Below are positions 636 to 56,460 of a stretch of 64,000 nucleotides of DNA, piece by piece. Position 1 is the first letter of the stretch. Each line of letters opens with the position of its first letter. Position numbers and translations under genes: made by a program. The stretch is from Gammaproteobacteria bacterium (GTDB taxonomy: Bacteria > Pseudomonadota > Gammaproteobacteria > UBA4575). Where the stretch lies: assembly GCA_045105815.1 (NCBI GenBank), contig JBGCDX010000098.1, forward strand, positions 5,440-69,439. Direction: 5' to 3'. A model generated the notes under the pieces. That model did no database searches. It saw only the letters and a program-made list of their open reading frames with translations, and was not told the origin of the DNA.

Positions 636-1616
636 ATGAGAATCTCATTCTTTTTATTTTATATAGTCTTTTATTTATTAATTTCACCAATTAGTCATGC
701 AGATGAAGTCATTCTATACAACGATGACAAAATTAGCGGCAATATCATAAATAAGACAGATGATGTGCTCACCTTGAAAACAAGTTATGCAGGCATAATA
801 AATATTACATGGAATAAAATTAAATCAATTTCTACTGACATACCTGCACATATTGTACTGAATGATGGTACTAAGATTAATGAAACGATATTAGCTAATA
901 AAACCTCTAGCTCTTCTAGCATTCAACAGATTGCTGAAATTAATCCACCTGTAAGACCAAACTTCATCAACAAAGGCCAGATTAATTTTGGTCTTGATAT
1001 AGAACGCGGTAATTCTGAAGTTGATGATTACCACCTAGACAGTGAAACAGAATTTAGGTGGCTACATGACAGGCTTTCTTTTGAATTGAATGGAGACTTG
1101 CAAGATAGTAATGGTAGAAGCTCTCAACAAAATGCTGAATTTCTGACAGATTATGACCATTTCTTAAATGATAAATTATTTACTTCAACCAGTTTACTAC
1201 TTGAGCATGATAGATTTGCTGACTTAAATTTACGCACCACACTAACCGCTGGAATGGGTTATCAAATATTTGAAGATCGGCGCATGAATTTATTTATTGA
1301 AGGTGGCCCGGGTTATATTTGGGAAAACTTTGATGAAGATGATAATGACAATTTTCCAATAGCCTTCTGGGCATTACAGTTTGATCGCTATTTATTTGAA
1401 AGATGGGGTCTACAAGCTTTTCATGATCATCGCTATAGCCAAAGTTTTGAAGGTGTATCTGACTTTATCTTTACATCTAGCACTGGATTAAGAATTCCGT
1501 TAGCCAATAATTTACAAGCTACCATTCAATTTAATTATGATTGGGATAATATGCCTTCTGAAAATGCAGACGAAGACAATCACGAAACACTATTTACTGC
1601 TGGTTATACATGGTAA
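636..1616 (+). CDS. Putative outer-membrane beta-barrel protein (DUF481/YdiY-like); N-terminal signal peptide
   Basis: ATG at 636. Hydrophobic N-terminus MRISFFLFYIVFYLLISPISHA. Alternating amphipathic segments. C-terminus ends ...TAGYTW with a terminal aromatic residue, typical of OM beta-barrels. Family assignment is from memory. Confidence 0.45.
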   Translation: MRISFFLFYIVFYLLISPISHADEVILYNDDKISGNIINKTDDVLTLKTSYAGIINITWNKIKSISTDIPAHIVLNDGTKINETILANKTSSSSSIQQIAEINPPVRPNFINKGQINFGLDIERGNSEVDDYHLDSETEFRWLHDRLSFELNGDLQDSNGRSSQQNAEFLTDYDHFLNDKLFTSTSLLLEHDRFADLNLRTTLTAGMGYQIFEDRRMNLFIEGGPGYIWENFDEDDNDNFPIAFWALQFDRYLFERWGLQAFHDHRYSQSFEGVSDFIFTSSTGLRIPLANNLQATIQFNYDWDNMPSENADEDNHETLFTAGYTW

Positions 1617-1681
1617 TACTCGTTTTTATATCTACTACCGTTAGCTAACTTAAATATTTTAATAAATATATTATTACCACT

Positions 1682-3175
1682 ATGACATTTAAATTTGACA
1701 ATACATATGCCAAAGAACTTGATGGTTTTTACACTGCGCATCAAAGTGCTGGAGCTCCAGCACCTAAAATCATAAAAGTAAATACGATGCTCGCTAATCA
1801 ACTGGGCATTGATATAAATAGCTTAAGCGAACAACAACAAATAGCGATCTTTTCCGGAAACCATGCACCAGAAGGCTCAGCGCCACTTGCACAAGTGTAT
1901 GCAGGACATCAGTTCGGTGGTTTTTCACAACAATTGGGTGATGGTCGTGCTTTGTTGTTGGGTGAAGTGGTAGATAAGAATGGTTTGCGCTTTGATATTC
2001 AACTAAAGGGCTCTGGTCGCACGCCTTATTCACGTGGCGGTGATGGCAAATCTGCGCTAGGACCGGTCTTGCGTGAATATATTATGAGTGAGGCGATGCA
2101 TGCATTAAATATTCCCACCACGCGCGCACTTGCCGCGGTGACAACAGGTGAAACCGTGATGCGCACCGAACCAACACCAGGTGGAGTATTCACACGCATT
2201 GCCGCAAGTCATATACGGATTGGTACATTCCAGTATTTTGCGGCACGACAAGAAATAGATCATATAAAAAAATTAGCGGATTATGCTATTGAACGACATT
2301 ACCCAAAAATTAAAGAAGAACTAGAAGAAGCTGATAATCTATATTTGTCTTTTCTCGCTCAAATTTGCAATGCTCAAGCTTCATTGGTTGCCCAATGGAT
2401 GTGTGTAGGATTTATTCATGGCGTAATGAATACAGACAACATGACTATTTCTGGTGAAACCATTGATTACGGGCCCTGTGCGTTTATGGACCATTTTGCT
2501 GCTGATACTGTTTATAGTTCGATCGATAAACAAGGTCGCTATGCGTATCACAATCAACCTTCTATTGCACAATGGAATCTTGCACGTTTGGCAGAGGCAT
2601 TATTGCCATTATTTGGTGATGAAACTGAGCAAGGCGTTGAACAAAGTATTAAACAAGCCACAGAAATTCTAGAAGCTTTCCCAGAACAATACACACAATA
2701 CTGGCTGATAGAAATGCGAAAAAAATTGGGGCTACACAGCAAAGAGGAAGAAGACCTAACACTTGCTAACGATTTATTAGCCAGCATGGATACTCAAAAA
2801 GTTGATTACACCCAATTATTCAATTACCTTGCGGATGTGTTGCAGGGCGAAGAGACACTGCCCCATACACTCTTTGATGATGCCACTGCCTTTACATTGT
2901 GGGTGGAACGATGGAAAGAGAGATTAGAACGAGATACTCATAATATTTCTGAAAGTGTTGAATTAATGAAGCAAGTGAACCCAGTTTATATTCCACGTAA
3001 CCACAAAGTGGAAGAAGCGATCGAGGCTGCAGTTGTTCACGAAGATTACTCTAAATTTGAAATATTAATAGACACTCTTAGCAATCCATATCAGTTACAA
3101 GATGGAAAAGACGATTACTCACAACCTGCACCAAAAGAATTTAGTGCGTCATTTAAAACTTTTTGTGGTACTTAG
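1682..3175 (+). CDS. selO: Protein adenylyltransferase SelO (YdiU/UPF0061 family)
   Basis: 497 aa. Contains the SelO hallmark stretch PLAQVYAGHQFGGFSQQLGDGRALLLGE...GSGRTPYSRGGDGKSALGPVLREYIMSEAMHALNIPTTRALA, which is near-identical in pattern to E. coli YdiU. Confidence 0.9.
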   Translation: MTFKFDNTYAKELDGFYTAHQSAGAPAPKIIKVNTMLANQLGIDINSLSEQQQIAIFSGNHAPEGSAPLAQVYAGHQFGGFSQQLGDGRALLLGEVVDKNGLRFDIQLKGSGRTPYSRGGDGKSALGPVLREYIMSEAMHALNIPTTRALAAVTTGETVMRTEPTPGGVFTRIAASHIRIGTFQYFAARQEIDHIKKLADYAIERHYPKIKEELEEADNLYLSFLAQICNAQASLVAQWMCVGFIHGVMNTDNMTISGETIDYGPCAFMDHFAADTVYSSIDKQGRYAYHNQPSIAQWNLARLAEALLPLFGDETEQGVEQSIKQATEILEAFPEQYTQYWLIEMRKKLGLHSKEEEDLTLANDLLASMDTQKVDYTQLFNYLADVLQGEETLPHTLFDDATAFTLWVERWKERLERDTHNISESVELMKQVNPVYIPRNHKVEEAIEAAVVHEDYSKFEILIDTLSNPYQLQDGKDDYSQPAPKEFSASFKTFCGT

Positions 3176-3201
3176 CCAGCCCCAAATACCAAGTATTTAT
3201 T

Positions 3202-4056
3202 CTAGCCTGGTAGCACTTCTGCATTAATCGGCAAACTATCGTCTCTCGACCATTCATTCCATGAACCAAGATAATTACGCAAATGTTTAAAGCCTGCTAA
3301 GTGCATCGCTACTAATGTATTGGAAACACGTGCACCTTTGAAGCAATAAATAATAATGTCGTCATCGGGATAAAGCCCATATTCTGCACACATGGCACGT
3401 ACTTTTTCTGGTGATTTAAACAATGGCATCCCTTCTGTTCGTTCCATAAAGTTGTACCACTCTATCCAACGTGCACCAGGCAAACGACCCTTACGTGGCG
3501 CAAAATCAATGCCGTAGGGAGATGAACTTTCTCCCGTCCACTCCACTTTATCGCGATTGTCTAATAGCTTTACATTAGGGTCACTCAATGACGCCAATAC
3601 CTCATCTTTTGTCGCGAGGATATTGTCTTGAGTCTTCACTTTAAAATTTGATGACTCAGTTACGGGGACAATGTCATCAACTGCAAAGCTTTTTTTATTC
3701 CACATGGAAAAGCCACCATCTAAGATGCCGGTATCAGGATGACCCAAATAGGTTAAAAACCAGTAACCGCGGCATGACCCACCATAGCGACTATCAAATG
3801 CATCTTCATAGATAATTACTTTCTTCTCATGTGTAATACCTGCAGCAGAAAACAGTGCTTGAAATTTATCTTGTAATTCTTTTAGTCCTTTGTCAGTTGT
3901 TTCTGCAAGATAAAAGAATATATCAGGAATACTTACCGCACCTGGAATATGACTTTTTTTATATTCATCTTCGTCACGGATATCAACCACTATTGTATTA
4001 CCTTCAGAAATGAACTCTTGAAGCTCTTCTGGTGAGTAAAGTATTTTATTTGTCAT
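3202..4056 (-). CDS. Two-domain rhodanese sulfurtransferase (thiosulfate/3-mercaptopyruvate sulfurtransferase, SseA-like)
   Basis: 284 aa, ATG at 4054-4056. Two rhodanese-like halves. Active-site Cys lies in IIYCFKGARVS. Convergent with selO. Confidence 0.8.
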   Translation of the reverse strand: MTNKILYSPEELQEFISEGNTIVVDIRDEDEYKKSHIPGAVSIPDIFFYLAETTDKGLKELQDKFQALFSAAGITHEKKVIIYEDAFDSRYGGSCRGYWFLTYLGHPDTGILDGGFSMWNKKSFAVDDIVPVTESSNFKVKTQDNILATKDEVLASLSDPNVKLLDNRDKVEWTGESSSPYGIDFAPRKGRLPGARWIEWYNFMERTEGMPLFKSPEKVRAMCAEYGLYPDDDIIIYCFKGARVSNTLVAMHLAGFKHLRNYLGSWNEWSRDDSLPINAEVLPG

Positions 4057-4363
4057 AGTTAACCTAATAAATTCTTATGATGTTCAAAGTGTATTAATTT
4101 TTGTAGTAATCATTATTGACATGAATCATTCTAATAATAATTAATTAAACAGAGCGTTTGATTAGCCATAGAGTAGCCTCAAATATTATTTTTAAATTTA
4201 TTTCGATGCATTTAAATCACTATGATGCTATTGCTACTACCAAGAAACAAATAGTTAAAAACTATGTATAGAATCAGGGTTACCTATATAAGCTAAATTG
4301 AATACCTAGATCGCTAAGCTAGCGCTACAATGGTCATTAGTAATGCATTGAGAGATATCGAAC

Positions 4364-4960
4364 ATGAAACTATATAACGCCGAGTTTTCTGGGAATTGCT
4401 ATAAAGTTCGTTTGCTTTTATCTCTTCTAAATATCGATCGGGAAATTGTACCAATCGACATTATCAACAAAGAACATAAGTCCCCTAGTTATTTGACCAA
4501 AAACCCATTAGGTGAGTTGCCGGCTCTTGAAGATGGTGCACATACGTTGCGTGACTCCCAAGCAATTCTTGTTTATCTTGCAAAAAAATATGGTAAGGAT
4601 GTTTGGCTACCAAACAACGCAAAAGAAATGGCTCTTGTTACGCAATGGTTATCTACTGCTTGTAACGATATTGCTCGTGGACCGATGGATGCAAGAGCTC
4701 ACTATAAATTTAAATTTGATGTCGATATTGAAAAAGCACGTGAAAAAAGCACGTCTATTTTAACCGTGATTAACAATCATCTTGCTGCTAGAGAATGGCT
4801 AGAACTGAATCGTGCAACCATCGCAGACATTGCTTGCTTTCCCTATATTGCACTTGCCCATGAAGGAAAAATATCTTTAGAGCCTTATACTAATATAAAA
4901 AAATGGATTACTAATATAAAAAAATTACCTAATTACATTTCAATGCCAGGATTAGATTAA
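4364..4960 (+). CDS. Glutathione S-transferase family protein
   Basis: 198 aa. N-terminal thioredoxin-like GST fold (MKLYNAEFSGNCYKVRLLLSLLNID...NPLGELPALEDGAHTLRDSQAILVYLAKKYG) and a helical C-terminal domain. Confidence 0.8.
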   Translation: MKLYNAEFSGNCYKVRLLLSLLNIDREIVPIDIINKEHKSPSYLTKNPLGELPALEDGAHTLRDSQAILVYLAKKYGKDVWLPNNAKEMALVTQWLSTACNDIARGPMDARAHYKFKFDVDIEKAREKSTSILTVINNHLAAREWLELNRATIADIACFPYIALAHEGKISLEPYTNIKKWITNIKKLPNYISMPGLD

Positions 4961-4964
4961 CTTT

Positions 4965-6347
4965 CTAATCCTCTATTACCCGCATGCTTTTCCATGGCCC
5001 AGTTTTAAATCTCCAGTAAAACACCGCACAGTAAATAACTACATTAATGGTGATGATCCACCATAGCCCATGCATCGTTGCATCAAAGTATTTAATATAT
5101 AAGTAACACGGAATAATTAATAAAAATATTGATATCACGATACTCATTTTCATAATGAAGCGTGTATCTCCCGCACCCTCTAACGCACCTAAAAACACTA
5201 AAAATATTGCATCAAATAAACAAAAGAATGCAACAAACCTTAAGAGCACTACTATCGTTTCAACACCGTTATCTAGTTCTTCTAGCCCACCATTTAAAGT
5301 AAATGGATAAATAAATATTTTAGGGATCGTTAAGTACATTACTGCGAGTACACCAAAAAATGCTAACGCTAAATGAATAGCTGACCAAGCTGCTTTTTCA
5401 GCCAACTCTGGTTTATTCTCACCTATTCTTTGACCCACTATCACTGCTACACCAATCATCATTCCAACCATTGGTAAAAATGAAAGCGCTTCAATATTGA
5501 AGGCAATATTGGTTGTCACACCTTCATGTGTACCCAATGTACCCACAAACATTAAAAAAGCAGTAAATGCTGACATGTCAATGAATAGCCTAAGCCCATT
5601 TGGCGCCCCAAAATAGATCAGTCTATTAAAAAGCTTTCGATTGAAATTCCAAGAAGCAAGTAAGTTAAATCGCTTGCGATATTTATTTTTAAAAATTAAA
5701 TATAGATACACTAATGACCCAGATATCACTGCTATATTACTAGCTGTTGCTGCACCTCGAATACCCATTTCAGGGAAACCATAATTTCCAAAAATTAAAG
5801 CATAGTCCAAGCCTATATTGATGACCGTGATGAGTATACTTACCCACATCACCACCAGAGTTTTACCTAACCCAGAAAAGAAGCTTGCTAGTGCATTGTT
5901 TAGCACCATAAACATAGCTGAGTACATTAGTATTTTAAAATACAAGGTCTCTTGCACTTGCACTTGTGGCTCATGACCCACTAAAGAGAAAAAACTTTCT
6001 GCTAAAAAGTAGGCAGGAATGATGATCAACAACGACATGGCGCTAAAATATATTCCCTGCCAAATAATTGCGCCGATTTTATTCTCTTCAGTTGCACCAT
6101 AATACTGGGCAACAAATGTATTTACATAGGCTGCTGTGCCAATAAAAAAACATAGCATTGCAAAGCTTGCCATCCCTGCTGGCATAGCGGCAGCTATTGC
6201 ATCAGGCGAATACCAAGCCAGAAACATTCGGTCAAAAAATAATAATATACTCCAAGCACCTGTACTTAAAATTAATGGAGTTGAAATTACTAATACTTCA
6301 CGATACCCACTTTCTTCAGACCAACGACGTTGCAAAGCTTTAAACAT
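4965..6347 (-). CDS. MATE family multidrug/sodium efflux transporter (NorM-like)
   Basis: 460 aa with about 12 predicted TM segments. MATE-like N-terminus MFKALQRRWSEESGYREVLVISTPLILSTG. Confidence 0.85.
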   Translation of the reverse strand: MFKALQRRWSEESGYREVLVISTPLILSTGAWSILLFFDRMFLAWYSPDAIAAAMPAGMASFAMLCFFIGTAAYVNTFVAQYYGATEENKIGAIIWQGIYFSAMSLLIIIPAYFLAESFFSLVGHEPQVQVQETLYFKILMYSAMFMVLNNALASFFSGLGKTLVVMWVSILITVINIGLDYALIFGNYGFPEMGIRGAATASNIAVISGSLVYLYLIFKNKYRKRFNLLASWNFNRKLFNRLIYFGAPNGLRLFIDMSAFTAFLMFVGTLGTHEGVTTNIAFNIEALSFLPMVGMMIGVAVIVGQRIGENKPELAEKAAWSAIHLALAFFGVLAVMYLTIPKIFIYPFTLNGGLEELDNGVETIVVLLRFVAFFCLFDAIFLVFLGALEGAGDTRFIMKMSIVISIFLLIIPCYLYIKYFDATMHGLWWIITINVVIYCAVFYWRFKTGPWKSMRVIED

Positions 6348-51951: not shown

Positions 51952-52824
51952 ATGAAGTATACTCCCGCACAACCACCAGAAGGCATCAATGTTGCTGTTG
52001 AACATCCATTAAAATCATTTTTCATTTTAACTGCTGGCACGATTGGTATAATTATTATTACTGTTTTAGCTTTGGGATTAGCTGCTGACTATTTAGTTAA
52101 GTATATTCCCGTAGAATATGAACAAAGCTTGTTTAGTGAAGATGGCGTGTATTTAATGCCTTTTGCTACTGATGACAGCGACGAAGGCATTCAAGTCAAA
52201 CAATATGTGCAAAATTTAGTTGATCAATTACATAGTGCTTCTGGAGAATCTTTTTCCGACCATCATTTCCTAGTTGAAATTGCCAACACAAACGATGTAA
52301 ATGCATTTGCAGTTCCTGGTGGACATATCGTAGTTACCAAAGGATTATTTTCATCTATCGAGTCTGAAAATGGTCTCAGCATGATATTAGCTCATGAAAT
52401 GGCTCATCATTATGAACGTCACCCATTACGCAGCACAGGTAGGGGCTTAGTAGTGTCTTTGTTTTTGCTCACCATCTTAGGTGCAGATGGCTCTAGTTTC
52501 TTACAAGGCTTTATCGGCAATACAGCTTCCATTACAAACTTAGCCTTTAGTCGTCAACAAGAAACTGACTCAGATAACTTTGCATCCAAGCTATTAATTA
52601 AGTTTTATGGTCACGCATCTGGAGCCGCTGAGTTTTTTGAGTACATCAACTCAGAAGAAAGCGTAATTGATGATATACCCAGCTTCTTAAGCACGCATCC
52701 TGCTACAGAAAACAGAATTTCTGATCTCGTCGAAATTGAAAAAGATTATTCTGGCGTTAAGAAACCATTACCTGCTTTTTTGAATGACTACATACAGAAT
52801 AACCAAGAGAATGAGCACTTTTAG
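51952..52824 (+). CDS. M48-family zinc metalloprotease with N-terminal TM anchor
   Basis: HEXXH in LAHEMAHHYERH. Downstream third ligand region QETDSD. Begins 2 nt after the previous stop. Confidence 0.85.
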   Translation: MKYTPAQPPEGINVAVEHPLKSFFILTAGTIGIIIITVLALGLAADYLVKYIPVEYEQSLFSEDGVYLMPFATDDSDEGIQVKQYVQNLVDQLHSASGESFSDHHFLVEIANTNDVNAFAVPGGHIVVTKGLFSSIESENGLSMILAHEMAHHYERHPLRSTGRGLVVSLFLLTILGADGSSFLQGFIGNTASITNLAFSRQQETDSDNFASKLLIKFYGHASGAAEFFEYINSEESVIDDIPSFLSTHPATENRISDLVEIEKDYSGVKKPLPAFLNDYIQNNQENEHF

Positions 52825-53655: not shown

Positions 53656-53967
53656 ATGAGAACGTTGATCATCCATCTGATAACCATAGTATTTATATGC
53701 CTTTTTTCTCTACAAGCGTTCGCAGGCAAAAAAGATCGTTATGCATATGAAAACTGTCTACTGGAACATCTAGACCATGCAAAATTAGATGTTGCGAGTC
53801 GCTATATTGCAGAAGCATGCGAAGAAAACTATGGCAGCGGGCCCTCTAAAGCAATATTCAGTGATGAACGCAAATACAATGAGTGCTTATTAGATCATAT
53901 GGTAGGTGTGGAAAGTGTCGATGCAGTCATAAGGATACGAAGAGCTTGTGAGCGGAAGTTTCGTTGA
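53656..53967 (+). CDS. Small secreted Cys-containing protein (hypothetical)
   Basis: 103 aa. Signal peptide. Duplicated YxxCLLxH...ACE-type half-repeats. Confidence 0.45.
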   Translation: MRTLIIHLITIVFICLFSLQAFAGKKDRYAYENCLLEHLDHAKLDVASRYIAEACEENYGSGPSKAIFSDERKYNECLLDHMVGVESVDAVIRIRRACERKFR

Positions 53968-54308: not shown

Positions 54309-54389
54309 GCCTATGAATTAATAAATTATGTATTTAGCAGCAACCCAACTAGAGAACTATTATCAACAAACCTAACAAGGAGACATATT

Positions 54390-54617
54390 ATGAATATAGA
54401 AAAAGTTTTACAAAACAACGAAAGCGTAAGCTTTATGTTTTTTCTTTCAGGAAAACTATGGTATCGCACCGAAAGTGGCTTTAAGTTCCCTGTACCAATT
54501 AAAGGCTCAGGACAGTCCGTTTTCCTAAACGAAGATCGTGCAAATCGCTTTTATCCTTACATCAAAGCACATGCTAAAAAATTGGAAGAAAAATTAGATA
54601 ATGCTAAAGCCGCATAA
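54390..54617 (+). CDS. Small hypothetical protein (75 aa)
   Basis: RBS AAGGAGA 8 nt upstream. No recognisable family. Confidence 0.45.
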   Translation: MNIEKVLQNNESVSFMFFLSGKLWYRTESGFKFPVPIKGSGQSVFLNEDRANRFYPYIKAHAKKLEEKLDNAKAA

Positions 54618-54650
54618 TTTTAATTCATCGTGCAAAAAAAGGAGACATTG

Positions 54651-54863
54651 ATGACAAACAAAAATAAATTTCCGAAAGCGAAGATAACAAAGTTATCTCG
54701 GCGCAACCTTATGCATGACCATCCTTTATTAAGTAAAGGTGGTCTTCATCAAGAAACGCATAAATCCAAACGGTTTTTAAATAAAATTAAAATAAAAAAA
54801 GAGTGGCTTCCGCAAAGTATATTTTCTAAATTATATTTTGCGGAAGCTATTCTTATTGTTTAG
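54651..54863 (+). CDS. ArfA-like alternative ribosome-rescue factor candidate (small basic protein with a hairpin inside its ORF)
   Basis: Start at the ATG after RBS AGGAGA (54641-54646). NLMHDHPLLSKGG...KSKRF resembles E. coli Arf[22 protein letters not shown]. A 15-bp stem hairpin begins at codon 52, as in arfA. Confidence 0.45.
   Translation: MTNKNKFPKAKITKLSRRNLMHDHPLLSKGGLHQETHKSKRFLNKIKIKKEWLPQSIFSKLYFAEAILIV
54807..54846 (+). promoter_or_regulatory. Long hairpin inside the arfA-like ORF (CTTCCGCAAAgTATAT...ATATtTTGCGGAAG), a candidate RNase III / truncation site
   Basis: A 10-bp perfect stem extends to about 15 bp with one mismatch. Lies in the 3' third of the ORF. Confidence 0.45.
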
Positions 54864-55060
54864 CATTAATAAATCAGGAATTCATTTATCCTTGCCTTAT
54901 AATATGAGTATTACAGTATTTTACTATTGCAAATATGAAATTGATGCGTTAGCCTGAAAATGACTTAGTGAGTACATCTCTATAGAATTAATTAAACTTA
55001 TATCTATAAAAACACCTGTACTACAGAACAATCTTATAAAAAAGATAATGGGAAGTTCAG

Positions 55061-55801
55061 ATGAGTAAACCCTTAATCATATTGTTAGGTATAATACTGA
55101 TAGCTATTCTCGGCTATTTTTGCATCTATAAACACAGTCCTGAAATTCAAAGTGACATTGATACAAGAACTAATGCAGCTCTTGCTGAACAAGGATTAGA
55201 ATATATTGAAGTTGACACAGATGGCCGTGATATTGTGCTGACTGGTGAGGTACTAAACGAGACAATCAGACAGCAAGCAGATGAACACGCAAAAAATGTC
55301 CCTGGTGTGCGCATCGTTGATAATCAATTAACTATTACTGCTGCTGCACCAGCACCAGAAATTATCATAGAAAAGGAATCTGAAGTTGAGGAAGCAATAG
55401 AAGCACCTAAACTTGAAGCTTTACCAGAATATACTTGTCAACAAGAATTCAACACATTACTTGATGCGAGTAAAATTAACTTTTCAACCAATAGCGCAGA
55501 AATTGATATATCAAGTACTAACTTATTAATTAATTTAATCGATGTTGCTAATCAATGTCCTGAAACAAATATTGAAATTTCTGGCCATACCGATTCCCGT
55601 GGTAGTGACGATTACAACCTACGCTTGAGCCAGTCACGGGCTACGTCCGTTATGAAATATTTAATTAACAACGGCATTGACTCTAATCGATTAAGAGCTG
55701 TAGGTTATGGTGAAACCAACCCTATTGCTGATAACGAAAGTGATGAAGGTTTAGCAAAAAATAGAAGAATAGAATTTAACGTAGAGGGGCTTTCACAATG
55801 A
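55061..55801 (+). CDS. BON-domain plus OmpA-like peptidoglycan-binding protein with N-terminal TM anchor
   Basis: TM helix LIILLGIILIAILGYFCIY. BON-like stretch ...DIVLTGEVLNETIRQQADEHAKNVPGVRIVDNQL. OmpA_C motif GHTDSRGSDDYNLRLSQSRATSV...NRRIEF. Confidence 0.85.
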   Translation: MSKPLIILLGIILIAILGYFCIYKHSPEIQSDIDTRTNAALAEQGLEYIEVDTDGRDIVLTGEVLNETIRQQADEHAKNVPGVRIVDNQLTITAAAPAPEIIIEKESEVEEAIEAPKLEALPEYTCQQEFNTLLDASKINFSTNSAEIDISSTNLLINLIDVANQCPETNIEISGHTDSRGSDDYNLRLSQSRATSVMKYLINNGIDSNRLRAVGYGETNPIADNESDEGLAKNRRIEFNVEGLSQ

Positions 55802-56460
55802 GCTATTTAATTACCCAACTTTGGATCTGCTTACTAATTGCTGCTGCAATCGGTGCAATTATTGGATACTGGTTAGCTAAGTCATCATGTCGCAGCAAAC
55901 TTGATGATTTAGATGCTAGCTGGCGACACAAGCTAGAAGATAACAGCAATGAGCACTCACGAAAATTAGCAGAACTCAGTACATCTGCCGTTACACCAGC
56001 CGCTGTAGCAGCGGTGTCTACTCCACCTGTGGCAGCCATAACGGAGCAGTCGAGTTATGAAGTGGAAGATATAGAAGGGATTGGTAAAAGTTATGGAAAA
56101 AAACTTCGCGATATGGGTATTTCTACAACTGAACAATTACTCAATACATGTTTCAACCTAGATGGACGCATAACCGTAGCCGAGCAAATAGGTATTGAAG
56201 ACTTTGTAGTACGCAAGTGGGCTAGCATGGCTGACTTGATGAGGATAAATGATATCGAAGGTCAATACTCTGAGCTAATGGTCTACGCTGGAGTTGATTC
56301 AGTGCAAGAACTTGGTCAGGAAAATGCTAGCGCACTTCATAGTAAATTATCTACTGCTAATGCTGAACAAAACCGCGTCAAGGTTATCCCTGACGAAACT
56401 ACTCTTGCGCAAATGATCAACCACGCTAAGAGTCTTAGAGAGGTAATACAAGATACTTAA
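55798..56460 (+). CDS. DUF4332/H3TH-like domain protein with N-terminal TM anchor, translationally coupled (ATGA) to the OmpA-like gene
   Basis: TM helix. The C-terminal domain EDIEGIGKSYGKKLRDMGISTTEQLL... and a second HhH-like repeat match the modules in the 27563 protein. Confidence 0.6.
   Translation: MSYLITQLWICLLIAAAIGAIIGYWLAKSSCRSKLDDLDASWRHKLEDNSNEHSRKLAELSTSAVTPAAVAAVSTPPVAAITEQSSYEVEDIEGIGKSYGKKLRDMGISTTEQLLNTCFNLDGRITVAEQIGIEDFVVRKWASMADLMRINDIEGQYSELMVYAGVDSVQELGQENASALHSKLSTANAEQNRVKVIPDETTLAQMINHAKSLREVIQDT

Follow-up and report, generated by a model that had tools for sequence, protein, structure and literature searches.

Stop-less messages are the default targets of trans-translation, and ArfA, BrfA and ArfT are tiny, fast-evolving back-up rescue factors. 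The KGKGS(Y) motif of ArfA is its channel-binding motif and its N-terminal RGxIKDNAxxAL segment contacts RF2; BrfA (YqkK of Bacillus; PDB 6SZS) evolved independently of ArfA and is reported to be restricted to Bacillus. ArfA (alternative ribosome-rescue factor A; YhdL in E. coli) is made from non-stop mRNA by way of RNase III cleavage or a terminator, the mature protein having 52-55 residues, and neither a terminator nor an RNase III site precedes the stop codon of arfT (PMC6299226). The brfA gene has 72 codons, with a Rho-independent terminator ahead of the stop, and its truncated mRNA gives rise to an active protein some 62 residues long (PMC8012679). The tail of SmpB binds the empty mRNA channel, and channel-binding tails are described for SmpB, ArfA, ArfB and BrfA; reviewers of the field point out that homology is a poor guide to back-up rescue factors and anticipate that more systems await identification (PMC8012679). 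Here we describe a gammaproteobacterial gene that belongs to a new family of basic proteins of about 50 residues, for which we see roughly even chances that they are ArfA/BrfA analogues made from non-stop mRNA.

The gene lies on the + strand of the window, by which we mean the whole stretch of 64,000 nucleotides analysed. Direct reading of the sequence gives an ORF of 70 codons plus TAG at 54651-54863, encoding a small basic protein, and a Shine-Dalgarno-like AGGAGA at 54641-54646 (+ strand), 4 nt 5' of the ATG. An earlier note on this DNA had reported an ORF following AGGAGA, and this is borne out, the translation of 54651-54863 being exactly the 70-residue peptide then quoted. The GGAG of the ribosome-binding site is invariant in an alignment of six homologous loci. 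The same protein, identical in sequence, is recorded as P0001 ('hypothetical protein') in a Gammaproteobacteria MAG, and the family HMM scores 81.9 bits on the ORF, the sole copy within the window. A co-oriented 75-codon ORF (54390-54617, + strand) ends 33 nt 5' of the gene and is a possible operon partner, the relation being uncertain; it has syntenic counterparts of 75-76 residues at L001, L003, L004 and L006, its conservation does not extend beyond the window clade, and Pfam and NCBIfam scans assign it to no family. The only promoter-like sites on the 5' side (54334-54391) are upstream of this 75-codon ORF. On the 3' side of the hairpin described below, the next gene is a co-oriented BON-OmpA gene at 55061, with a promoter-like site at 54960-54988 between the two.

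With a cut-off of E <= 1e-3, profile searching recovered 152 or more cluster representatives; among the 150 matches listed, all but two are 44-126 residues long, and matches are limited to query residues ~14-57. Metagenomes were scanned separately with a trimmed 13-sequence core. The shared region is a core of 35 residues, RN(P/L)LHDHPLLxKGGVHxKxxKAKRxxxKxxLKKEW, which in the window protein is R18-W52 (RNLMHDHPLLSKGGLHQETHKSKRFLNKIKIKKEW; 54702-54806, + strand), the sole part conserved family-wide. In 99 representatives the information content is 2-4 bits from R-N to W and falls below 1 bit straight after W. Core substitutions number 594 at the third codon position, against 286 and 187 at the other two, and we rejected a spurious ORF on the strength of this third-position excess together with the conservation of the family. 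AlphaFold2, run with a 49-sequence alignment, predicts a basic α-helix over residues 37-51 (HKSKRFLNKIKIKKE; codons at 54759-54803, + strand), with a mean pLDDT of 91 over residues 41-50, and no regular structure in residues 1-36.

Pfam, NCBIfam and PHROGs lack the family, which is usually unannotated and was previously unnamed. Neither Pfam nor NCBIfam places the window protein in a family, and scans of 49 members against both give scattered single weak matches, which we treated as noise; the PHROGs matches are all weak (E >= 0.02) and are to families with no assigned function. No PDB chain sequence, 6SZS of BrfA included, is matched at E <= 10 by profiles A1 and A3, and tblastn with one family member found no match among the phages of GenBank or the plasmids of PLSDB. 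In the literature we found neither a described family of this kind nor a link between tRNA arrays and ribosome rescue. Family members occur on Gammaproteobacteria-like metagenome contigs of marine and sediment origin and on one IMG/VR viral contig, the close relatives of the window protein being from Thiotrichales-like MAGs; L027 is carried by a contig of 2.65 Mb.

The ORF is interrupted by a conserved RNA hairpin of 21-22 bp with a 10-nt loop (54801-54852, + strand), identified by folding and by covariation in 27 homologous hairpins, which starts at GAG-TGG, the codons of E51 and W52. The intragenic hairpin claimed earlier is thus present and bigger than supposed, the arms quoted at 54807-54846 being the core of the longer stem. 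In a 121-nt context the fold has -37.3 kcal/mol (z = -7.5), and 0 of 200 shuffles fold as well; the 52-nt hairpin alone has -29.7 kcal/mol (z = -9.2). A T-rich tract, TATTCTTATTGTT (54848-54860, + strand; post-hairpin run TTCTTATTGTTT), overlaps the 3' base of the stem and extends past it, and the in-frame TAG follows at 54861-54863 (+ strand), 9 nt past the last stem pair and beyond what would be the usual termination point. The order within the ORF is therefore hairpin, T-rich tract, stop, and by sequence the stem and tract resemble a Rho-independent terminator. A simple terminator scanner made no call at the hairpin, whose loop exceeds the scanner's 8-nt limit. Rfam has no family that reaches threshold for the hairpin, sub-threshold matches being miRNA-like (e.g. 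mir-6, 36.5 bits against a gathering threshold of 58), and a dispersed repeat such as REP was rejected, the hairpin sequence being unique in the window. Throughout the window clade a T-rich run follows the stem (e.g. TTTTCTTTTT at L004, L027, L028 and L032), and the stop begins 60-69 nt from the hairpin start, always 3' of the stem and T-tract and at least 9 nt past the stem; L042 also has a clear U-tract 3' of its stem.

The hairpin is under selection family-wide, and its start is the exact end of protein conservation. It occurs at the same codon in all ten close homologues and in 17 more distant members, and these 27 distinct loci have hairpins of 48-54 nt that start at the E-W codons; every W-bearing member begins its hairpin at GAG-TGG. 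Across the 27 hairpins 90 % of cells are paired, against 43-51 % when the partner is slid, compensatory changes on both sides are seen at 15 of the 20 stem pairs, and none of 500 shuffles attains the observed values. Both W and hairpin are missing from four divergent members (L033, L034, L036 and L038), whose ORFs end at ordinary stops.

The position of the stop codon, by contrast with this fixed register, is unconstrained across the family. It falls within the 5' arm at L012 and L018, in the loop at L013 and L015, in the 3' arm at L014 and L042, just 3' of the hairpin at L017 and in the window clade, and far downstream at L011, L016, L024 and L029; in none of about 25 hairpin-bearing lineages does it come ahead of the hairpin. 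Many messages of the family probably lack a stop codon. About one-third of lineages (L012-L015, L018, L042 and L039) have an in-frame stop within the hairpin; translation of an uncleaved message would terminate there in the normal way, and only RNase III cleavage ahead of those stops would make the non-stop state universal.

Many members are neighbours of tRNA genes. Fourteen of 23 scanned loci, or 12 distinct loci once the duplicates L029-31 are merged, are within tRNA arrays, 3-13 nt 5' of tRNA-Asp. At six of these 12 the first in-frame stop is inside or beyond a tRNA gene: at L011, L020, L021, L022 and L029-31 that gene starts 3-13 nt past the hairpin, and at the sixth, L016, the stop overlaps tRNA-Ile and no tRNA-Asp was called. 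Given 5' processing of the tRNA, the messages at L011, L020-22 and L029-31 cannot hold a stop, and yet purifying selection continues to act on their core. Because many array loci are homologues of one another, the independent associations are few. The array loci have no T-tract 3' of the hairpin. Single tRNAs adjoin L042, L036 and L038, and typA/bipA adjoins L035. We provisionally rejected the idea that the array-bearing contigs are phages, there being one IMG/VR match only; flanking HTH_3, HNH_5 and Band_7 genes and a contig of 3.07 Mb (L042) suggest instead a bacterial chromosome or an integrated element.

A close parallel in gene layout is arfA. ArfA and the family proteins are both small, basic and functional at about 50-55 residues, their genes both have an in-ORF hairpin of about 20 bp running from a Trp codon where protein conservation ends, and in both the C-terminal extension and the position of the stop vary among homologues. 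In E. coli arfA the hairpin has 20 bp and begins at the W51 codon; in the window the hairpin at 54801-54852 likewise stands at the end of the conserved region, 5' of the stop at 54861-54863. The earlier note had taken the gene for a divergent arfA with arfA architecture, and the architectural half of that claim holds: the hairpin is selected family-wide and in register with the core, the stop drifts, several relatives have their first stop inside a downstream tRNA gene, and the geometry is that of E. coli arfA. The homology half fails. Similarity to an ArfA profile, the lack of which the same note had named as grounds for refutation, was not found: the window protein draws no PF03889 match from Pfam at E <= 10, and neither do 49 family members at E <= 1; with filters off, an ArfA HMM built here scores true ArfA at 96-115 bits and none of 156 family sequences above 4.9; and when the family is aligned with a diverse set of ArfAs in HHalign, the probability is 0.25-0.5 %.

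A true, extremely divergent ArfA (PF03889) homologue would account for the shared Trp codon at the hairpin start, for a D-to-W spacing of 29 residues that equals that of E. coli arfA, and for the local likeness of 'LHD(H)PL(L/F)R' to enteric ArfA, but we regard it as very improbable. The 'LLHDPLF' resemblance on which the claim had drawn does not carry over, since the matched 'HDP' is specific to enterics and other ArfAs have 'LVTSPLF' (consensus VTSPLF). The hallmarks KGKGS(Y) and RGxIKDNAxxAL, invariant or nearly so as columns of the ArfA alignment A5, are absent from the family consensus; ArfA has RGxIKDNALxALV plus KGKGSY where the family has RNPLHDHPLLxKGGVHxK, with no detectable sequence homology, and the profile comparisons, with HMM scores of at most 4.9 bits in both directions with filters off, the PF03889 search and the HHalign probabilities all speak against this reading. 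The family tail is predicted to be helical, whereas that of ArfA is described as extended and positively charged, and the surroundings of the genes differ as well, being often a tRNA array for the family and, for arfA, zntR and mscL on either side (E. coli locus L040).

The layout of the window clade, hairpin and T-tract 5' of the stop, is that of brfA, the putative Rho-independent terminator ahead of the stop codon being the shared trait. The two differ in distribution, BrfA being reported from Bacillus only and the family occurring in Gammaproteobacteria-like metagenome contigs. ArfT of Francisella, the KGG-repeat stress proteins and the family are all very small basic peptides with K-G-G. 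The ArfT motif is KKGGSTNKK (PMC6299226), as against xKGGVHEK in the family, ArfT being compared here by its published motif; arfT is without a pre-stop terminator or RNase III site, whereas the family is defined by one. The KGG-repeat Pfam model matched none of 49 members at E <= 1, and HHalign against E. coli YciG gave 1.3 % probability over 7 columns (RKGGVHE to RKGGQHS), which is not significant. The SmpB tail, for which we used the E. coli sequence that we take to be ...KKQHDKRSDIKEREW..., shares with the family a basic tail, helical by prediction in the family, and H-(D/E)-K and (R/K)-E-W motifs; the spacing of the motifs differs, the SmpB body domain is absent in the family, HHalign gives 0.2-0.3 % probability, and no PDB SmpB chain was matched. 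The family has no sequence similarity to the known rescue factors ArfA, BrfA, ArfB, SmpB and KGG/ArfT. Its predicted basic helix (residues 37-51) and non-regular N terminus resemble the channel-binding tails of SmpB, ArfA, ArfB and BrfA.

Readings without rescue have to be weighed against these parallels. The family could comprise ordinary small basic RNA- or ribosome-binding proteins, e.g. stress- or tRNA-associated ones, with the hairpin as a terminator or a 3' stability or processing element that merely shares sequence with a weakly constrained ORF end, and with neither tmRNA sensing nor any part in rescue. The normal stops within the hairpin at L012-L015, L018 and L042 would be expected of such proteins, as would the hairpin-less members with ordinary stops (L033, L034, L036 and L038); the tRNA-array context fits a tRNA- or RNA-binding role equally well, and the RKGGVHE/RKGGQHS tie to KGG-repeat stress proteins, weak and not significant at 1.3 %, points the same way. 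We nevertheless consider this reading unlikely, if a serious contender, because none of about 25 hairpin-bearing lineages stops before the hairpin, whose start is always the last conserved codon pair, and because at L011, L020-22 and L029-31 (probably also at L016) the ORF has no stop before the tRNA gene, which requires a stop-less message. Unconserved, often hydrophobic tails of 2 to more than 70 residues are, moreover, unlikely to be neutral on a protein of 50 residues.

The register between peptide and hairpin would also suit a regulatory nascent arrest or leader peptide, the core of which would stall the ribosome at E-W, melt the 5' arm and control downstream termination or processing, the target being the BON-OmpA gene in the window and tRNA-Asp elsewhere. 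SecM, MifM and VemP provide a precedent, being arrest peptides with conserved sequences that act on downstream RNA structure (PMC8012679). At 35 residues, the RN-to-EW segment would roughly fill the exit tunnel, and its last codons are precisely those at which the hairpin begins; the hairpin and T-tract of the window clade are terminator-like and lie 5' of the co-oriented gene at 55061. A cis-acting leader is, however, expected to stay with its target, and the genes downstream vary (tRNA-Asp, tRNA-Pro, tRNA-Lys, BON-OmpA, bipA and hydrolases). The hairpin-less members retain the N-terminal motif, the tRNA-array loci have no T-tract and so nothing to attenuate, and in the window the promoter-like site at 54960-54988 intervenes between the hairpin and the downstream gene; overall this explanation appears distinctly improbable.

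The explanation that we favour is that of a rescue peptide made from non-stop mRNA, an assignment that is drawn entirely from gene architecture and context, and from these we infer transcript ends, tmRNA control, ribosome binding and rescue activity. The functional product would be the conserved core, ending at or just past W52, and the selected hairpin, running from the E-W codons, would set the 3' end of the message. For the window gene, hairpin and T-tract would end transcripts 5' of the TAG by putative Rho-independent termination; in the tRNA-array relatives, RNase P cleavage at the tRNA-Asp 3-13 nt downstream would set the end, and RNase III cleavage of the ~21-bp stem is an alternative means of end formation. 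The peptide would then be translated largely from a stop-less message; as long as trans-translation works, tmRNA-SmpB would tag it for degradation, and it would build up only on saturation of that pathway. Its invariant N-terminal motif, RNxxHDHPLLxKGGxH, may promote peptide release, most simply via recruitment of a release factor. A more specific version, in which the family is a rescue-peptide family independent of ArfA, BrfA and ArfT and many members obtain their non-stop mRNA through RNase P at an array tRNA-Asp, with the conserved 3' hairpin blocking exonucleases, is put forward tentatively, as a possibility somewhat short of even.

The family carries the one regulatory signature common to two independently evolved rescue factors. 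Should a rescue function not be borne out, it is still a well-defined case in which selection keeps an RNA structure and a peptide in strict register. Should the function be borne out, the family would be a new one among rescue factors, with a clean sequence motif for mechanistic work, and a hairpin placed where the core ends, together with a drifting stop, would be usable as a search criterion for rescue factors. Confirmation would also link tRNA-array processing with translation quality control, and the array arrangement, if the proposal is true, would couple the output of a rescue factor to tRNA-operon transcription and to the capacity for trans-translation.

The gene under study is an open reading frame (ORF) of 70 codons on the forward strand (ATG at 54651, TAG at 54861-54863; read in the sequence, as is a ribosome-binding-site-like AGGAGA at 54641-54646), the product of which is exactly the small basic peptide that an earlier note quoted and proposed to be a divergent ArfA. 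Folding of 54780-54900 (-37.3 kcal/mol, z = -7.5) gives a stem-loop of 21-22 bp at 54801-54852 on the same strand, beginning at the GAG-TGG codons of E51/W52; the arms described earlier, at 54807-54846, are the core of this larger stem, and the isolated 52-nt hairpin folds with -29.7 kcal/mol (z = -9.2). An A-run lies 5' of the stem, and a T-rich run, TTCTTATTGTTT, overlaps its 3' base and continues past it, with the stop codon coming only after this run; in close relatives the tract after the stem is TTTTCTTTTT. The hairpin, whose sequence is single copy within the window, was not called by a simple terminator scanner because the loop limit of the scanner is 8 nt. The stop lies 9-22 nt downstream of the stem in 10/10 members of the window clade, i.e. 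the close homologues of the window gene. Rho-independent termination usually releases the transcript at or before such a distance, and the stop in this clade is thus probably at or past the usual release point.

The protein belongs to an unannotated, fairly widespread family. Only six close relatives came up in a word-indexed search, none of them named beyond 'hypothetical' and one from a Gammaproteobacteria MAG; when a profile of these six was run with HMMER in full against 1.84 billion cluster representatives, 152 family proteins were obtained at E <= 1e-3, with lengths of 44-126 aa for all but two among the 150 matches listed, and with matches restricted to query residues ~14-57. Anchoring 99 representatives on the HDHP motif defined a 35-residue core (R18-W52), R-N-[PL]-L-H-[DN]-H-P-L-[LM]-x-K-G-G-V-H-E-K-[ST]-x-K-A-K-R-x-x-[ED]-K-x-x-L-[KR]-[KR]-E-W, in which most columns carry 2-4.3 bits of information, with a drop below 1 bit from the residue after the W. 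Family members matched no family in Pfam, NCBIfam (49 members scanned) or PHROG, and are hypothetical or nameless in the source databases. AlphaFold2, using a 49-sequence alignment, predicts residues 1-36 to be without regular structure and, with confidence, a basic helix at residues 37-51 (pLDDT 91 over residues 41-50). Core substitutions in the window clade favour the third codon position (594 versus 286 and 187), as expected of a translated gene; in the hairpin-encoding part the excess is much weaker (155 versus 104 and 113).

Loci were fetched for seven syntenic close homologues, 28 metagenomic members, one IMG/VR member and one on a 3.07-Mb contig. Every member keeping the ...KKEW end has a hairpin of 48-54 nt and 19-23 bp that starts with GAGTGG, the E-W codons, and ends with CCAYTC, its interior sequence varying between members. 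In an alignment of 27 distinct hairpins to a 20-pair structure, standard pairs occupy 90 % of cells, compared with 43-51 % in controls with the 3' partner shifted by 1-3 columns; changes occur on both sides in 15/20 pairs, the covariation score is 0.597 versus 0.13-0.18 in these controls, and the observed values were matched by 0/500 shuffles. No Rfam family accounts for the hairpin. Four divergent members (L033, L034, L036 and L038) have neither the W nor the hairpin and end in ordinary stops. In the only viral-collection member (L039; 2989-3114 of a 145.7-kb IMG/VR contig, product MKPRNFFAVHAHFRKGGAHGKTNKANRKQGKQNLQKELRSV, ending ...QKELRSV*) the stem again starts at the E codon; this gene directly precedes and overlaps a DksA/TraR-like zinc-finger ORF. 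The copy in locus L023 (1018-1202) has a frameshift before the KKEW codons and retains a perfect 22-bp hairpin, and in L016 (2986-3165) the W codon has become Cys (GAGTGT), creating a mismatch in the stem. Such copies could be in decay, or could reflect maintenance of the hairpin independent of the peptide.

The arfA-like architecture noticed earlier holds. E. coli arfA (L040) has a 20-bp hairpin that begins with the last base of the W51 codon, right after the conserved region. The arfA stop is preceded by a terminator as well as an RNase III site, so that a non-stop mRNA yields ArfA, which is repressed by trans-translation and is 52-55 aa long when mature (PMC6299226). In brfA, which evolved independently of arfA, a Rho-independent terminator precedes the stop; reviewers anticipate that more small rescue factors await identification and will escape homology searches (PMC8012679). 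ArfT has a KKGGSTNKK motif, but no hairpin of the kind present here. The new family has gene design, size, charge and tail character in common with ArfA, BrfA and ArfT, but the sequence of none of them.

The proposed homology to ArfA fails. The window protein had no match in Pfam or NCBIfam by hmmscan even at E <= 10. A diverse ArfA alignment was compiled from enteric, Shewanella, Vibrio, Pseudoalteromonas and Colwellia proteins, all annotated PF03889 (consensus RGxIKDNALKALVTSPLFRxRVEKPKKGKGSYxRK). The 'LLHDPLF' that had been paired with 'LMHDHPLL' is confined to enteric ArfA, other ArfAs having 'LVTSPLF'. When the family was compared with ArfA, HHalign gave probabilities of 0.25 % and 0.5 %, and hmmsearch with an ArfA HMM and all filters off gave <= 4.9 bits or, with query and target exchanged, <= 3.8 bits, compared with 96-115 bits for true ArfAs. 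Profile searches of all PDB chains, including ArfA, BrfA, ArfB, SmpB and ribosomal proteins, found nothing at E <= 10, and HHalign against SmpB and the KGG-repeat protein YciG (the E. coli sequence of each) was not significant. With Pfam, HHalign, filter-free HMM and PDB profile searches all rejecting it, a true but very divergent ArfA is very improbable, the shared architecture notwithstanding. Four proteins in the ArfA alignment A5 (P0285, P0286, P0293 and P0296) are only 60-67 aa long and end ...KAA or ...NAA, recalling the C terminus of the ssrA degradation tag; they are bona fide ArfAs of Pseudoalteromonas, Colwellia and Vibrio, apart from P0286, an unnamed metagenomic sequence, and such ends could be another way to hold ArfA levels low, or an ORF-calling effect.

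The stop codon of the new family is without positional constraint and drifts between lineages, in none of which was a stop found before the hairpin. Counting from where the hairpin begins, L012 and L018 reach an in-frame stop at +12 nt, within the 5' arm; the first such stop falls in the loop in L013 and L015; in the 3' arm in L014 and L042; just past the hairpin in L017 (+54) and the window clade (+60 to +69); and 180-250 nt downstream in L011, L016, L024/25 and L029-31. ARAGORN placed 12 distinct loci (14/23 scanned, including the duplicates L029-31) inside dense arrays of up to 22 tRNAs in ~3 kb, with arrays or tRNA sites at 2295-5265 (L011), 965-5354 (L018), 266-2638 (L029), 4484-4557 (L019), 3157-3234 (L022) and 3204-3278 (L023). 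The gene typically lies between tRNA-Ala, tRNA-Tyr or tRNA-Lys and tRNA-Asp(GTC), the latter starting 3-13 nt past the hairpin wherever ARAGORN called it; in L016 it was uncalled, the next called being tRNA-Ile at 3333. The first in-frame stop falls within tRNA-Asp in L020, L021 and L022 and within the following tRNA-Glu in L011 and L029-31, and the L016 ORF extends to 3342, overlapping tRNA-Ile; the 'long' family ORFs in protein databases are tRNA-gene read-through. Array loci have no T-tract and no room for a promoter between hairpin and tRNA and, given how tRNA 5' ends are known to mature, we therefore infer that RNase P processing must strip the stop codon from those messages in which the reading frame runs on into a tRNA gene. 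The core is conserved in these stop-less lineages nonetheless.

An HTH_3 repressor-like ORF, an HNH_5 endonuclease and, in related loci, a Band_7 protein flank many of the array loci, which are therefore mutually related and represent few independent associations. Their carriers, on metagenome contigs of 74-226 kb for L011, L018, L020 and L022, may be chromosomal, integrated elements or phage; ARAGORN called unusual anticodons in the arrays (SeC/tca, Tyr/ata, Asp/atc and Ile/tat). Single tRNA neighbours are tRNA-Lys, 54 nt downstream, in L042 and tRNA-Arg in L036 and L038, and the GC-rich member L035 (2959-3132) lies ~120 nt upstream of typA/bipA (3253-5076), which encodes a ribosome-binding translational GTPase.

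No tRNA or tmRNA gene, RF-1-like GGQ ORF or, by ArfA HMM search, ArfA-like ORF was found in the window. ORF calling and the homologous loci identify a conserved 75-codon ORF with its own AAGGAGA site at 54390-54617 (forward strand), which ends 33 nt before the small basic gene; all window-clade loci keep this ORF, its product ends ...AKAA, and it matched no Pfam or NCBIfam family. In L004 and L006 a further small ORF (71-75 aa) lies 5' of it. The only promoter-like sites are upstream of the 75-codon ORF, and the two genes may therefore form one transcript ending at the hairpin. The conserved neighbourhood comprises, upstream on the forward strand, a VF_A0006-family protein (precomputed Pfam PF28034 in homologous loci), an M48 peptidase and YbjQ-domain proteins (53656-53967 and 51952-52824 listed), and, downstream, a BON-OmpA protein (55061-55801) and a DUF4332 protein (55798-56460), with no evident link to translation.

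Lineages with the stop inside the hairpin support a rival reading, that of a small protein which binds RNA or the ribosome in an ordinary role and has a sloppy C terminus overlapped by a terminator or stability hairpin, an explanation that we consider possible, though the less probable one. An arrest-peptide or attenuator leader is unlikely, given the varied downstream genes and the existence of hairpin-less members. The best-supported of the readings weighed, with about an even chance of being correct, is a new family of small basic peptides in which the selected hairpin would set the 3' end of the message, so that synthesis would depend on how much trans-translation capacity is available, as with ArfA and BrfA; the peptide would act on the ribosome, most plausibly rescuing non-stop complexes. 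That the family functions as a rescue factor made from a non-stop message is a clear, testable hypothesis.
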